The notes under the pieces are model-generated. The model did no database searches and was not told where the DNA came from. It saw nothing but the letters and a program-made list of their open reading frames with translations. From Octopus vulgaris (taxonomy: Eukaryota), in the NCBI GenBank assembly GCA_951406725.2, contig OX597827.1, positions 42,718,001 to 42,782,000 on the forward strand: 64,000 bases of DNA, written 5' to 3'. How positions within the stretch are numbered: position 1 is the stretch's first letter; the number at the start of each line of letters is the position of its first letter. This document shows positions 2,465 to 57,420 of the stretch, in pieces. The translations under genes and the position numbers were made by a program.

Positions 2465-4118
2465 GTGGTGAACTAGCAGAAGCGTTAGAAGGCCGGTGAA
2501 AATGCTTTGCATTATTTCTTCCGTTTTTTTTATATTTCGTATTCAAATATTGCGGAGGTCAACTTTAAATTTCATTCATTCGAAATCGAAAGTACTAGTC
2601 AATTATTGTCGCCGATCTAATCAACTAACCCCATCCTGGTTTTTATACTAAAATCTGAAACACTGACAAAGAGCACTTGTGAAAATGCTTTGCAATATTC
2701 CTTACGGCTAAAGTGGTCTTGTTGCCTAGAGTAGAGAAGAAAATAAAGGGCGGCAAGCTGGCAGAATCGTTAGCACACCGGGCGAAATATTTAGCGGTAT
2801 TTCGTCTGTCTTCACGTTCTGAGTTCAAATTCCGCCGAGGTCGACTTTGCCTTTCATCTTTTCGGGATCGATAAATTAAGTACCAGTTGTGTACTGGGGT
2901 CGATCTAATTGACTGGTCCCCTCCCCCCAAAATTTCGGGCCTTGTGCTTAGAGCAGTAAAGAATATTTCTTACAGTTAATGTGGCGAACTGGCAGACTCG
3001 TTAGCACGCCGGGCGAAATGCTTAGCGGTATTTCGTCTACCGCTACGTTCTGAGTTCAAATTCCTCCGAGGTCGACTTTGCTTTTCATCCTTTCGGAGTC
3101 GATTAAATAAGTACCAGTTACGCACTGGGTCGATGTAATCGACTTAGTCCCTTTGTCTGTCCTTGTTCGTCCCCTCCAGGTTTAGCCCCCTGTGGACAAT
3201 AACGAAATATATATTTTGATTATATTTTAAGGCGGCAAGCTGGCAGAAACGTTAGCACGCCGGGCGAAATGCTTGGTGGTATTTCGTCCGCCGCTGCCTT
3301 CTGAGTTCAAATTCCGCCGAGGTCGACTTTGCCTTTCATCCTTTCGGGGTCGATTAAATAAGTACCAGTTACGCACTGGAGTCGATATAATCGACTTAAT
3401 CTGTTTGTCTGTCCTTGTTTGTCCTCTCTCTGTTTAGCCCCTTCTGGGTAGTAAAGAAATAGGTATTTCGTTTGTCTTTACGTTCTGAGTTCAAATTCCG
3501 CCGAGGTCGACTCTGCCTTTCATTCTTTCGGGGTTTATAAATGTAGTACCTGTTGCGTACTGGGTCGATCTAAATGACTGGCCCCCATATTTCTTATGGC
3601 TCTTTACATTTTGAGTTCAAATCCTGCCAAGATCAACTTCGTATTTCATTCTTTCAGGGTGGATAAAATAAAGTACCTGTTAAATATTGACGTTAATAAT
3701 ATCGACTGACCCCTCCCCCTCAAAACTGCTGGATTTGTTCCACAGCTAGTGATAGAGTAGTGATCTGGCCGAATCGTTAGAGAGTCAAAAATATTTTGTG
3801 TCTTTTTTTTCTTCTGTTTCTTTAAATTTCGATTTCAAATCCTGCCTAGTTCTTTCATCCTTTTCGTGTCGATGAAACAAATGCCATATTTGAGCACTGG
3901 CATTGAAGTAATCGTCTGCCCTTCCCCTGACCCTAAAATTGCTGGCCTTGTACCAATATTTGAAACCATTGTTACAATGTACATGGCTGCGAGATGACAG
4001 CATTCTTAGAGAGCCGGGAAAAACCTTTGCAGTATTTCCTTTGGCACTTTTCGTTCTGAGTCTAAATACTGCGGACGTCAACTTTGCTTTTCGTCTTTAC
4101 AGAATCGATAAAAATAAA
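2465..4118 (+). mobile_element. Head-to-tail cluster of about 8 SINE family C copies of different ages
   Basis: Repeated GGCGGCAAGCTGGCAGAA..GTTAGCACGCCGGGCGAAAT..GAGTTCAAATTCCGCCGAGGTCGACTTTGCCTTTCATCCTTTCGGGGTCGAT at about 2749, 2980, 3231 and 3462; decayed copies at about 2465, 3590, 3765 and 3985. Confidence 0.88.
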
Positions 4119-5680: not shown

Positions 5681-6704
5681 GAAGGACATAAAATAAGAAC
5701 AATGATGAAATAAATCTGAAGTGCCAGTGTTTATTTAGCAAAAAAGAATTTTAAAAAAGGCCATCATGAAATATAACAATACCTGTTTCAATACGCGATT
5801 TCACATCAGTAATCTTGCATAACAAATTCATAAACTTAACGACTTGACTATTTTTGTCAGGAAAATCGGCGATAAAGAGCAGGAAGAGCGTAGGTCTTAG
5901 GACAGATACTCCTGGTCTATCATCCTCATATATTTCATGAATATATATCTGAGTTGCCACTGGTGGCAGCTTTCAAACGTATTTCTCCGTTGGGAACACT
6001 CAGATGGCGAGTGGGAAAAGATTCTACCAGATAAACCACGACTGGTTTGTTTATGAAGCAGGCCACAAGCACCATACCTTCTCAAATTCTTTGGAGATGT
6101 CGAAGGCCAAAAAGATAAGCATAAAAGCTGCTTTCTGGTATGCTGCTGCTGCTTCTGTGAGTGGTGCTGTATCGTATGAGCAGTGAATCTGGAAGACTGA
6201 AAACCGCAACGCTTGTCGTTAAAAACTTGACTCTCTTCAAGTGGTTAATGACGTGCTTCTAAAAGATAGAATCAAACGGCTAACTTTGCATACTTAATAG
6301 GCTAATTGGTCTATATTAAGGAAGAGAGGAGGGACAGAGAGAGAGGGAAGGAAAGAGAGAGGGTGAGAGAGAGAATTATTGAGAAGGAGGGCGTGCGAGG
6401 GTGAGGGGGAAAGAGGGAGGAAGAGAAAGACAGAAAGAGAAAGAGAGGGAAAGGAAGAGAAAAATGGCTGAAAAGGTTATCAGACAACAAGGATCACTCA
6501 AAATTTGAAAATGGAGTTAAATTCTTTTCTAATCACTGAGTGGAACCTGTCAAATGTATGAAGTCTGAGTTTTAGGTGAAATCCAGCGAATATTCGTATT
6601 CAACAACAACAAATCTCTACTGACATGGTATTTCTGAACCCGTTAGACATACCTGGATCCCACCTCAACAGCTTCAGAGGTTGTAGCAATGTAAGCTCAA
6701 ATCA

Positions 6705-6840
6705 AATTCCGCCGAGGTTGACTTTGCCTTTCATCCTTTCGGGATCGATAAATCAAGTACCTGTTGCGTACTGGGGTCAATATAATCAACTGGTCCCCTC
6801 CCCAAAGATTTCAAGCCTTGTGCCAAGAGTAGAAAAAGAA
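6705..6840 (+). mobile_element. SINE family C, 3' part (short-tail type)
   Basis: AATTCCGCCGAGGTTGACTTTGCCTTTCATCCTTTCGGGATCG...CCTTGTGCCAAGAGTAGAAAAG. Confidence 0.8.
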
Positions 6841-20749: not shown

Positions 20750-20896
20750 GGTTTCTATGGTACTAAATTTATCGACCCCGAAAAGGTGTTAGGCAAAGTT
20801 GACCTCGGCGAAATTTGAACTCAGAACGTAAAGGCAGACGAAATGCCGCTAAGTATATTGTCTGGTGTGCTAACGATTCTGCCAGCTCACCGCCTT
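20750..20896 (-). mobile_element. SINE family C, abutting the truncated Tc1 relic
   Basis: Reverse complement of the C head and body. Confidence 0.8.
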
Positions 20897-22180: not shown

Positions 22181-22793
22181 GGCACTCCGTCGGTTACGAC
22201 GACGAGGGTTCCAGTGAGCTGGCAGAATCGTTTGCACGCCGGGCGAAATGCTTAGCAGTATTTCGTCTGACGTTACATTCTGAGTTCAAATTCCGCCGAG
22301 GCCGACTTTGCCTTTCATCCTTTCGGGGTCGATAAATTAAGTACCATTTACGCACTGGGGTCGATATAATCGACTTAATCCCTTTGTCTGTCCTTGTTTG
22401 TCCCCTCTGTGTTTAGCCCCTTGTGGGTAGTAAAGAAATAGATTCCAGTTGATCTGATCAACGGAACAGCCTGCTCATGAAATTAACAATCAAGTGGCTG
22501 AGCGCTCTGCAGACACGTGTACTCTTAAAGAAATCCTCGTGGAGTTTCAGCGTGACAAAGAGTGTGAGAAGGCTGGCCCCTTTGAAATACAGGTACAAAA
22601 GAAACAGGGAAAAAGAGTGAAAGTTGTGGTGAAAGAGTACAGTAAGGTTCGCCACCCCCACCCCCTACTGGAGCCTCGTGGATCTTTAGGTGTTTTCGCT
22701 CAATAAACACTCACAACGCCCGGCCTGGGAATTGAAACTGCTATCCTACGACCGCGAATTTGCTGCCCTAGCTACTGGGCCATCAGGCCTCCA
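22181..22793 (-). mobile_element. SINE family B interrupted by a SINE C insertion
   Basis: B tail at about 22181-22213 and remainder at 22441-22793. Confidence 0.88.
22214..22440 (+). mobile_element. SINE family C (long-tail type) nested in SINE B
   Basis: Near full copy; TTCCAGT is duplicated at both junctions. Confidence 0.88.
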
Positions 22794-38654: not shown

Positions 38655-38990
38655 ACATGCTTATCATTTCCAACCACTTATCAATTTTTTTGCTCACTGT
38701 ACCCAGAACAGCAACAGTTATTGGTGCAATGTACACCTTTTTCCATTCGCAAAAGCTTTTGGAATTTCGTTCTTCAGAGTTTCATATCTCGTCAATTTTT
38801 TTTTTATATTTTCGGCAAATCTGCATGCAGTCTCTTGGACACCTAATATCTATGATCATGCCTGATTTTTGATCAGCACAAAATCAAATTTCCAATGTAC
38901 GATTCCATCATTACATTAGATCATGATGTCACAAAGTGCCGTTGTTCTGGAATTTTCTGTCACACACTTTCGTTCAAATTCATACCATTT
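38655..38990 (-). pseudogene. R4/Dong-like RLE non-LTR element, C-terminal fragment
   Basis: Minus strand MIIDIRCP and WKKVYIAPITVAVLGTVSKKIDKWLE, matching RLE-domain ends (IIDIACP..VPVVIGALG). Confidence 0.6.
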
Positions 38991-39004
38991 TTCTTACCTT
39001 TTCT

Positions 39005-40005
39005 GCAGATGAAAGGATGAGAGTATATGAGCGAAAGACCATGCATGGATATGTTAGTAGAAAGCTCCGAGATGATAGTAACATTGATGGACCAACAAAC
39101 GGATTACTACCTCCCACTTTGAAGAGGATGCGATTGAAATCCAGAAACAGGAAATATCAACCAAATTACTGATGCACAAAAGGGATAAAGATGCAGAAAA
39201 AGCAGTAAAATGTGACAACCTATGCAGACTTTGTGGAGTAAACACACTCACATCATAAGCAGTTGTCCGAAAATATCATCACAGTATTATTTGCCGATGG
39301 GACATGATGTTGTAGCTAGGACACTGTATAACGTGATCCGTCGAAAGGATAACCCCGAGAACAAAGAAATAAGAACCCACAGTATGGTGAAAGACATAGC
39401 GACTCATAACAAAAGTACTTGTGGAATGTCCCAGTGAAAACCTCAGTAAAATGTAAACACAATAGACCCGATACAATGATTTGGAATAAAGAAGAGAAAA
39501 TGTGTACAATTGTGGAAATCAGCTGCCCAGCAGATGTTAAGATAAAGCGAAAGATCAGCGAAAGAGAAAATACGTACGCTGAACTATTGAGAAATCTGCA
39601 GTTACTCTATCCAGATTACGAGTTCAGGTATATACCTGTTATTATTGGGGCACTGGGATATCTAACGCACTGCTTAAATACTAATCTTGAGAAATTAGGC
39701 TTCTCAAAACCAGAAAGAAGAAAGCTGATTCAAAGATTTCAGGTCCAGTCTATCACTGGAACTGGAAAACTCTGTAGAACTTTCCAGAAGTTTATCATTT
39801 AAGTATATATGCGCATGTCTAGACATGAAAATCTATGCATGAGAATACATACATACGACAAAACATATAAATCTGCACATGTACATACATATATACAAAA
39901 ATACCCTGTTGGTGTTGTTTAAATTCCAGTGAAGGAGACTTGGATCTAGGTTAGAAACCGGCTCTTTCTCTATTGGCGAGAAATCTTGAATTAAAACTGA
40001 ATAAT
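39005..40005 (+). pseudogene. R4/Dong-like RLE non-LTR retrotransposon, 3' part plus UTR
   Basis: KTMHGYV, CRLCG..HIISSC (CCHC), GHDVVA (cf. RHD), HNRPD..VEISCP (PD-D/E nuclease), IPVIIGALG; frameshifts; 3' end joins (CATA)n. Confidence 0.85.
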
Positions 40006-43489: not shown

Positions 43490-43790
43490 TTCATTGACCG
43501 AGGTTACCGTGGTCTTTTCCGTGGGCTTTTCTTTCCACGGGTAAACCTCACCTGTCCTCCCCTTTACACTTTATATTTAACATTTCTGTGATAACGATCC
43601 CTGTTGATCGATTTTTTCTTTTTCTTTTTATTCTCCCCATCCCCTTATTTTTGCTTTCCTCTCTTCTTTCCTTTTACGATCCCTTTTGATCGAAAACCAA
43701 CCACCCCTCTTTTTTTATCCTCAAAAAGAAAAGCTCTACCTTGTAATTTGTCCCGTCTGTGTGCTGCCCTGTGTGGCTAATAAAGAAACA
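43490..43790 (+). mobile_element. Tx1-clade LINE 3' UTR, copy 1, within (TCTA)n
   Basis: Highly similar to about 44405-44707; ends AATAAAGAAACA followed by (TATC)n. Confidence 0.85.
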
Positions 43791-43827: not shown

Positions 43828-44707
43828 GGACAACTTCCAGAGATCCCTGGCCTGGCGGTGCTACCGAGAAGCGCTACCCGTTCGGGATAAGCTCTATAGG
43901 CATGGCTCGAGAAACACGGGGCCGACCTGCCTGAGATGCGGGCAGAGCGACGAAACCGCTCTGCACGTAATCGTGCAGTGTCCAGCAATTTCCGACCTGT
44001 GGACTTATGTCGAACGACTGCTGTCACGTGTGGGACGAGTCGGTTTATCAGCCGATTCTATCGTTAATATCGTCACGCCTCCTTCCTTCAAACGGGAAGG
44101 AAGAGCTATTTTTATCATACTTGTGGCTATGGCGAAAGAATGTATCTGGTGGACGCGCCTGAAAGGATTAGAGACAAACACTTTCCTCTCTGGTCAATCT
44201 CTCATCAACTTCTTCAAGTATCACTTGAAGAAAAAAGTGAGTAGAGAGGCAGGTTTTGTCTAGTGAATGTTTTAAAAAAGATGGGTGAATGTAGCAAGGA
44301 TGGCACGTATGAATGACGAAGCCACCTTGACTATGAACCGTAAAAATTAATACAGAGAGTTGCTTATTTGCAAAAAAAAAAAAAAAAGAAATATAACATG
44401 TGACTTCATTGACCGAGGTTACCGTGGTCTTTTCTGTAGGCTTTTCTTTCCACGGGTAAACCTCACCTGTCCTCCCCTTTACACTTCATATTGACATTTC
44501 TGTGATAATGATCCCTATTATTAATTTTTTTTTTGCTCTCCCCCCACCTTTTTTTTAACCCCTCCCTTTTTTTGTCCTCTTTCTTTCCTTTTACGATCCC
44601 TTTTGATCGAAAACCAACCACCCCTCTTTTTTTATCCCCAAAAAGAAAAGCTCTACCTTGTAATTTGTCCCGTCTGTGTGCTGCCCTCTGTGGCTAATAA
44701 AGAAACA
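43826..44707 (+). mobile_element. 5'-truncated Tx1/L1-clade LINE (ORF2 C-terminal zinc finger plus 3' UTR), within (TCTA)n
   Basis: Open frame from 43826 to the stop at 44263: LDNFQRSLAWRCYREALPVRDKLYRHG..TCLRCGQSDETALHVIVQCP..LW..AKECIWWTR (zf-RVT-type CCHC). Confidence 0.85.
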
Positions 44708-49164: not shown

Positions 49165-49289
49165 TTTGACGGGTCTGCTACCAAAATGAGAAATAGTTAT
49201 AATAATTATTTCAAATTTTGGCACAAGTCTTGCAAAACACCTATGTATAAACTCCTTTCATCTTTTGATTTTCTGTTCAGTGATTTCTT

Positions 49290-49755
49290 ATTTCTTTATT
49301 GCCCACAAGGGGCTAAACATAGAGGAGACAAAAAAGGACAGACAAACGGATTAAGTCCGGTGCATAACTGGTACTTAATTTATCGACCCCAAAAGGGATG
49401 AAAGGCAAAGTCGACCTCGGCGGAATTTGAACTCAGAACGTAGCGGCAGATGAAATACCTATTTCTTTACTACCCACAAGGGGCTAAACACAGAGAGGAC
49501 AAACAAGGACAGACAAACGGATTAAGTCGATTTACTACCCACAGAGAGGACAGACACACGGATTAAGTCGATTATATCGACCCCCCCCACCACCACCACC
49601 ACCACCAGTGCGTAACTGGTACTTATTTAATCGACGCCGAAAGGATGAAAGGCAAAGTCGACCTCGGCGGAATTTGAACTCAGAACGTAGCGGCAGACGA
49701 AATACCGCTAAGCATTTCGCCCGGCGTGCTAACGTTTCTGCCAGCTCGCCGCCTT
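49290..49755 (-). mobile_element. Tandem or rearranged SINE family C copies (long tail)
   Basis: Reverse complement of C; two tails and two bodies. Confidence 0.85.
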
Positions 49756-57234: not shown

Positions 57235-57261
57235 GGATGGTATAGATAGATAGATAGATAA

Positions 57262-57420
57262 GTTTCTTTATTGGCCACACAGGGCTGCACACAGATGGGA
57301 CAAGTTACAAGGTAGAGCTTTTCTTTTGGGGGATGAAAAAACAAAACACAAAAAACAAAAGAAACAAAGAAAAGGTGGCGTAGGTTTTCGATCAAAAGGG
57401 ATCGTAAAAGGGGAAAAAAT
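57262..57420 (-). mobile_element. Tx1-clade LINE 3' end, copy 3, within (GATA)n
   Basis: Reverse complement of about 43670-43790; (GATA)n on both sides. Confidence 0.85.

Follow-up and report, generated by a model that had tools for sequence, protein, structure and literature searches.

A SINE of Octopus vulgaris with a tRNA-like head ends in a tail like that of Tx1-like LINEs, a probable source of its reverse transcriptase

Introduction

Which enzyme copies the SINE at positions 22216..22440 of a 64,000-nucleotide stretch of Octopus vulgaris DNA (contig OX597827.1; the whole stretch is called the window here)? The element, SINE C, ends in a segment that resembles the 3' end of a LINE in the same window, and the initial annotation of the locus proposed that a Tx1-type enzyme mobilises it. 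In the accounts of Ohshima, three SINEs with L1 tails are described among 58 pairs, all of them from plants or an alga, and the stringent L1-clade pairs named there are ZmSINE2/3 with LINE1-1_ZM in maize and sorghum and SINEX-3_CR with L1-1_CR in Chlamydomonas (PMC3472496, PMC3747384). The model in which the L1-group ancestor read a specific RNA tail and poly(A) recognition came later (Ohshima, 2012) rests, as presented there, on these three SINEs of plants and an alga. A poly(A)-free case in an animal, where several young families have an intact ORF2 and the variants of the tail form a natural series, makes the ancestral-tail model directly testable.

In the literature we searched, no SINE of an animal has a tail derived from Tx1 or L1; such a pairing may already be recorded in Repbase, SINEBase or supplements. 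Bivalve SINEs are described as using CR1, CR1-Zenon, L2 and Nimb (PMC11481361), and an octopus annotation describes 13 recently active L1-Tx1 families and SINEs that are mostly unclassified (PMC13282606). The octopus CORE-SINEs OR1 and OR2 (Ohshima and Okada, 1994, as mentioned in PMC4824008, PMC4758252 and PMC5804259) are tRNA-headed octopus SINEs, as SINE C probably is. SINE C may be OR1 or OR2, for which the accounts in those three papers give no partner LINE, and could well be a family that is already described.

SINE C and its relatives in the window

The copy at 22216..22440 (plus strand) has the long form of the tail, lacks the first 7 nt of the element and lies inside a minus-strand copy of another SINE. 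It is flanked by a 9-bp target-site duplication (left 22207..22215, right 22441..22449, 8/9 positions matching), the pieces of the host SINE on its two sides overlap by 7 bp, and it is 88-91% identical to the window copies at 2986-3212 and 3238-3462. Its tRNA-like head spans 22220..22294, with an A-box-like motif at 22220-22230 and a B-box-like motif at 22284-22294, both spotted by eye; in the SINE reference copy, the A-box pattern was matched and the B-box pattern was not. ARAGORN found no tRNA in the window, and an Rfam search with a sister copy of SINE C gave no real match. The central part is presumably CORE-like, by its appearance. The LINE-type tail occupies the last ~60 nt (22380..22440) and contains a predicted hairpin (stem 22416-22419/22425-22428, 5-nt loop), followed by an A-rich end without poly(A). 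SINE C has entered a second abundant SINE family at almost the same position in two independent loci, window 22182-22793 and L090.

Two more long-tail copies lie at 2983..3212 and 3233..3462 (both plus strand), the latter with a short-tail sister SINE immediately after it that has no head and starts at SINE position 49 (the tandem spans 3233-3586), and on the minus strand 49289..49753 holds a long-tail copy followed by a headless long-tail copy, again from position 49. The short-tail sister, as at 2749..2968 (plus strand), has the head and body of SINE C and another tail with a similar small loop; further stretches of it were seen at 6702-6836 and 20757-20894. Its tail has the same 5-nt loop with a different closing stem and scores 27 in local alignment with the long tail, and the sister may use the same LINE group.

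Strength and extent of the tail match

The window contains three LINE 3' ends of the type in question, all in or between (TCTA)n tracts. The first, at 43490..43790 (plus strand), is a 5'-truncated Tx1-like copy consisting of 3' UTR only and located between (TCTA)n tracts; it contains the 41-mer compared below. The second, at 43828..44707 (plus strand) in (TCTA)n, belongs to a family called A here and is also 5'-truncated, retaining ORF2 residues ~980-1150 with a zf-RVT domain, the 3' UTR and the tail; the UTRs of the two copies are 89% identical. The third (57261..57411, minus strand, in (TCTA)n) belongs to a sister subfamily, B. The decayed 3' part of another LINE lies at ~38700-40000, followed by (CATA)n; we take it to be of R4/Dong type from a motif of such elements.

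The initial annotation had reported 33/41 ungapped identities between the SINE at 22398-22438 and the LINE at 43748-43788, and exactly this figure was recovered. It had also placed both segments at the extreme 3' end and CCTTG in front of both. The segments do end their tails, except that the SINE runs on to 22440, two bases past the quoted end; CCTTG is present in both at different distances, one base before the SINE segment (22392-22396) and four bases before the LINE segment (43739-43743). The similarity is kept at consensus level, with 32/41 identities between the family majorities over the same 41-nt segment.

Within the window, ungapped matches of at least 28 to the LINE 41-mer are confined to the three LINE ends and five SINE ends, the next best being 24, and blastn gives the SINE/LINE tail match an E-value of 2e-6. 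The shared tail is longer than the 41 nt and covers ~58 nt, from the body/tail junction of the SINE to its last base. Homology between LINE and SINE starts no more than 5 nt from the place at which the long- and short-tail SINEs diverge. Real LINE tails reach median local scores of 35-66 against the SINE majority, as opposed to means of 13-16 and maxima of 24-31 for shuffled tails; four stretches from the 3' ends of three other repeats in the window score 10-16 against the SINE tail, and the end of the LINE that we take to be R4/Dong-type is unrelated to it (score 13).

Could chance or convergence have brought together a tract rich in T, a small hairpin and a signal resembling that for polyadenylation? 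The two tails are of low complexity, and T-rich blocks further upstream in the UTR also align modestly: between distant LINE families the tail scores 28-42, only moderately higher than the 14-35 of these blocks. The A-rich end resembles a polyadenylation signal and could be conserved for another reason. Shuffled tails, however, reach at most 31, compared with 66-106 for the real ones, and base composition cannot yield agreements of 57/58 and 44/47, the values found for the closest tails described below, which makes chance scarcely credible as an explanation. The tail of the SINE and the 3' end shared by these Tx1-like LINEs, which belong to the L1 group and have no poly(A), are homologous.

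The LINE group that carries the tail

A genome search with the ORF2 end of family A gave, among the loci listed, 39 besides the window's own, at 98% identity. In 29/29 other family-A loci that were fetched, the tail stands downstream of the ORF2 end, with 31-37/41 matches to the window copy. The possibility that the LINE end is a piece of SINE captured by a few LINE copies, which the initial annotation had named as fatal to its proposal, was rejected, as the tail is found on all 29 of these loci and in every related family examined.

Full-length family-A copies encode ORF1 and a 1152-aa ORF2. In the full-length copy L039, ORF2 contains Exo_endo_phos (27-217), RVT_1 (516-763) and zf-RVT (986-1038) domains, the last of which is present in the ORF2 fragment of the window too. 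Among solved structures, the closest to family A ORF2 is human L1 ORF2p (E 8e-56, residues 10-863); R2 proteins follow at E 1e-21 or weaker, and no CR1, RTE or L2 protein is among the 15 matches listed. An ORF1 with a CCHC zinc knuckle is a feature of LINEs of the Tx1 clade and the L1 group. The zf-CCHC domain is above the Pfam cut-off in family H and in the ORF1-only element L294 (see below) and below it in families A (E 0.004) and I (E 0.001). Part of family A (window 43829-44260; L007, L010, L014) has a 2-nt deletion in common that ends ORF2 ~28 residues early; copies with this deletion have nonetheless spread over many loci.

ORF2 identity to family A is 84% in family C, 81% in I, 71% in F and 62% in H, and F2 and G are older sister families. 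Among named proteins, ORF2 has a single close relative, from Argonauta, with 71% over the RT region. In a quick tree of 19 proteins, which contained no characterised Tx1 or L1, five of the LINE families, the Argonauta protein and P0001 form one clade with an SH-aLRT of 100. The architecture (APE, RT and zinc finger) places these LINEs in the L1 group and fits the description of Tx1 given in PMC4494074; because the tree had no named Tx1, we call the group Tx1-like rather than Tx1.

The tail recurs throughout the group. By a strict end motif, it is present at 27/29 loci in family A, 19/20 in C, 16/17 in I, 28/30 in F, 19/20 in F2, 13/29 in G and 26/30 in H. Because real tails score far above shuffled ones and above other repeat ends, the tail is a general feature of this LINE group. 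It has been kept down to 62% ORF2 identity, and SINE copies are only 3.5-5.2% diverged from their subfamily majority, so it is older in the LINEs than in the SINE.

Each family is associated with one microsatellite: A, B, C and I lie at (TCTA)n and F, F2 and G at (ATT)n, and H is often at (TC)n. TCTA comes directly after 24/27 loci in A, 19/19 in C and 12/16 in I, ATT after 28/28 in F and 18/19 in F2, and TC after 10/26 in H under a strict rule. This recalls the Tx1 families Kibi at (TC)n, Koshi at (TTC)n and the crocodilian families at (TTCC)n or (TTTC)n (PMC4494074), which as described are likewise APE-RT elements with one microsatellite per family, family H matching the (TC)n case. The octopus targets differ from those of Kibi, Koshi and the crocodilian families in that they include (TCTA)n and (ATT)n. 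Young intact elements also occur in head-to-tail arrays with short microsatellite spacers, in family F at C4:93.80-93.83 Mb, C47 and C50 and in families C and I at C1:60.40-60.42 Mb.

Abundance, ends and targets of the SINE

The SINE is 232 nt long. Seventy-one copies with a 3' end were found in 700 kb sampled at 70 round-number positions, which extrapolates to ~280,000 copies or, at ~200 nt each in 2.8 Gb, to a rough estimate of ~2% of the genome. Copies end at one fixed point, which equals the LINE end, without poly(A) or a tandem repeat, and the tail is as conserved as the rest of the element (median 92% to the majority). The tail ends may resemble those of fish Rex1.

Target duplications of 9-20 bp (mode 16) flank 46/69 full-length non-tandem copies, compared with 0-2 in five mismatched controls; duplications of this length suit an L1-group enzyme. 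The 101 unique targets have a purine at position 2 in 97% of cases, T at position 3 in 72% and A at position 4 in 74%. With which bases a target starts varies with the SINE subfamily, mostly GGTA in two of them and an A-rich start in the one called CAA.

Is family A, the (TCTA)n family present in the window, the helper? The initial annotation had noted that SINE C copies lie outside (TCTA)n and had suggested that the true partner might be a related family of different specificity. Both points hold: (TCTA)n follows none of 200 SINE copies, (ATT)n two and (TC)n none, and family A is a weak match in tail (38/50) and in age (0.2% as against 3.5-5.2% divergence), closer tails being found in its relatives. 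Families A, C and F diverge by 0-0.2%, F2 and H by 2.3% and G by 8.6% from their majorities, as opposed to 3.5-5.2% for the SINE, in LINE sets that were taken from best hits and are biased towards young copies. The insertion-site signatures of the SINE and family A are not the same, position 2 of the SINE target being C or T in 0% of the 101 targets, whereas TCTA has C there.

Family A, or its sisters B, C and I, could still be the helper if the microsatellite preference came from read-through RNA that the SINE lacks. Family A is abundant and has an intact ORF2, TA at target positions 3-4 is common to LINE and SINE in the chosen register, and among SINE copies chosen for an end in TC, 5/30 precede (TCTA)n in the orientation of the LINE. 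However, at 0.23% TCTA per strand, the few SINE insertions at TCTA are, by a rough estimate, at chance level; the tail of family A is the weakest match among the close candidates and has a 6-nt loop where the SINE has 5 nt; position 2 of the target speaks against it; and the listed copies of A, C and F are much younger than the SINE. On this sequence evidence, family A is likely not the helper, and the explanation by read-through RNA for A or its sisters is decidedly improbable.

Copies of the SINE also stand in tandem. Headless SINE from position 49 directly follows 65/200 copies, and in the CAA subfamily the headless follower starts at position 16. The second units are mixed (37 long-tail, 20 short-tail, 25 unclear), a mixture more in keeping with repeated insertion into the head of the SINE itself than with a single dimeric master. 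Two loci, L261 and L371, have a duplicated target at SINE position 49. The leftover head fragment expected from ordinary insertion is usually absent at the tandems, and long-tail/headless tandems could arise by homology-guided 5' joining or from dimeric transcripts. Locus L218 was considered as a nested self-insertion and dropped, the inner copy being a short-tail sister without a matching 3' duplication. Among the loci collected, none of 94 headless SINE pieces is preceded by a recognisable LINE tail.

A predicted hairpin in the tail

All tails can be drawn with a 3-4-bp stem and a 4-6-nt loop before the A-rich end. In an alignment of 24 rows, 77% of the cells are paired, compared with 66.5 +/- 2.8 in shuffled alignments (0/500 shuffles as high), the hairpin having been named from the same sequences on which pairing was counted. 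The covariation score is above that of all 500 shuffles. Two pairs have changed on both sides, a number of covarying pairs that is not above shuffles (401/500), and the folding z-scores of the tails are ordinary (-1.04 to +0.98). A hairpin in the tail is plausible as a predicted structure.

The closest tails

Matches to the SINE majority tail are 38/50 in family A, 39/50 in B, 43/55 in C, 40/55 in I, 39/53 in F, 44/58 in F2, 45/56 in G and 48/58 in H, and the families with an intact ORF2 reach only 74-83%. Closer tails were found in two kinds of older element. The first became visible through a motif with LINE-type spacing that has 105 sites genome-wide; 14/30 sites viewed have no SINE body directly upstream, and several of these 14 are elements with ORF1 only. 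At 7/7 extended loci of this kind, ORF1 is matched ~1.5 kb or less from the tail and no ORF2 intervenes; one of the seven has a piece of ORF2 1.7 kb upstream of ORF1. The first such element was found with a motif derived from the SINE, which involves some selection, and the others mainly by similarity in the ORF1 region. The majority tail of the ORF1-only elements, built from 9 rows picked from 30 loci for the long tail form, agrees with the CAA subfamily of the SINE (21 copies) at 57/58 positions and with the overall SINE majority at 55/59. ORF1-only copies are 66-83% alike and by that measure older than the SINE. Copies on different chromosomes (L309, L312, L316, L317, L318, L320, L307 and L373) are flanked by the same sequence on the 3' side, pointing to a specific target within another repeat.

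The second kind is represented by L319 (C20:44024155-44027539). Among 151 ORF2 ends in the fetched loci, the best tails outside inserted SINEs are those of L268 (score 78) and L319 (score 76). In L319, decayed ORF2 residues 581-1152 (47-56% identity to family A) are followed by a UTR of ~190 nt and then by a tail with 44 matches over ~47 nt, which ends in the SINE's own terminus and lies outside any microsatellite. Contigs of four public runs contain tens of L319-type copies at 80-90%, one of which spans the ORF2 end to the tail; these copies look older than the SINE burst. The tails of the ORF1-only elements and L319 have an extra base that families G and H also have and the SINE lacks.

Three motif searches, each of which sees exact motif matches only, found no young intact LINE with the exact tail of the SINE. 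Besides the one already described, a motif for the ORF1-only type of end has 111 sites, 29/30 of those viewed being SINEs, and a motif for a LINE-type hairpin end before SINE position 49 has 40 sites, 8/8 of those viewed being SINEs.

The near-identity of tails raises the question of direction. The LINEs and ORF1-only elements might have gained the tail from the SINE by template switching, given that the SINE is far more numerous and that the ORF1-only elements with the nearly identical tail are themselves non-autonomous. The tail, however, occurs in every family, even at 62% ORF2 identity, and differs between families, the extra base of the ORF1-only, L319, G and H tails is absent from the SINE, and the ORF1-only copies are older than the SINE by their 66-83% likeness, all of which renders the reversed direction highly improbable. 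Because homology starts at the junction of long- and short-tail SINEs and the LINE tails are far more diverse, the tail would have passed from a Tx1-like LINE of this group to a tRNA-headed SINE.

Proposed mobilisation and comparison with known systems

We consider it probable that SINE C is copied in trans by the Tx1-like ORF2 of one member of this group, which would recognise the tail; the Tx1-type enzyme suggested by the initial annotation is supported to that extent, with the tail homology holding at family level. ORF2 would bind a putative polymerase III transcript of the SINE by its tail and the small hairpin in it, the target would be nicked by the APE endonuclease, and reverse transcription would be primed at the fixed end of the tail. 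More speculatively, read-through RNA may pair with the nicked target and help choose the site, which would explain the subfamily-specific target starts. The best candidate for the helper is the L319 lineage or the parent of the ORF1-only elements. If correct, this names the enzyme group behind a repeat that fills ~2% of the genome.

Alternatively, the tail may be a relic of a Tx1-like origin that is no longer read, the SINE being moved loosely by any LINE enzyme, whether of this group, RTE, CR1 or R4/Dong. The fixed SINE end that equals the LINE end, the tail conserved like the rest of the element, the unrelated R4/Dong-type end in the window and the 9-20-bp target duplications all count against loose mobilisation, which we think unlikely. 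It has in its favour the failure of the three motif searches to find a young LINE with the exact tail, the microsatellite targets of young LINE families that the SINE does not share, the unremarkable folding of the tail and the crocodilian SINEU, which is thought to use Tx1 without a common tail (PMC4494074).

SINEU is linked to Tx1-Mar by target only, with no common 3' end in the account of Kojima (2015) (PMC4494074). The octopus SINE resembles this pair in that a SINE thought to be moved by Tx1 prefers a site in another repeat and inserts in tandem, and it resembles known Tx1 families in accumulating at a site within another repeat (PMC4494074). In contrast, SINEU elements are described with snRNA heads, poly(A) and a link by targets, whereas here the link is the tail and the targets of young LINEs are not shared (PMC4494074). 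The plant and algal pairs likewise have an L1-clade 3' end of ~45-60 nt that is common to LINE and tRNA-type SINE; theirs has a hairpin with compensatory changes, which in the octopus tails is a plausible prediction. Unlike them, the octopus pair has an animal host, site-specific Tx1-like LINEs and no poly(A) on either partner, whereas the algal pair, as described, ends in poly(A).

The ORF1-only elements have counterparts in HAL1, HeT-A and Ag-Sponge, non-autonomous LINEs with ORF1 only that are described from L1, Jockey and CR1 (PMC5786205, PMC5753468). As in these, an ORF1 with a zinc knuckle is followed directly by the LINE tail without ORF2; unlike these, the octopus elements are of Tx1-like derivation, and a SINE tail has its closest relative in theirs. 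Elements bearing ORF1 were deemed unsuitable as sources of SINEs in the text of Kojima (2018) (PMC5786205, PMC5753468).

A broader reading is possible rather than probable, and we put it forward tentatively. Within the L1 group, the octopod Tx1-like LINEs would form a stringent branch that has no poly(A) and chooses its RNA by a hairpin tail of ~60 nt, and one lineage would carry passengers at two levels, the ORF1-only half-LINEs and the SINE of ~280,000 copies, with almost identical tails. The site would be set in part by pairing of read-through RNA with the target, which would direct the LINEs to microsatellites and the SINE to the head of its own copies.

One observation concerns the other end of the LINE. 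The 5' UTR of family A contains a perfect 11-bp hairpin (L039:3124-3158, also in L031 and L033), the central 15 nt of which are identical to the hairpin of the SINE CAA tail, and which could offer the same protein another place to bind. L040 has a hairpin with another loop at the same place of the 5' UTR.
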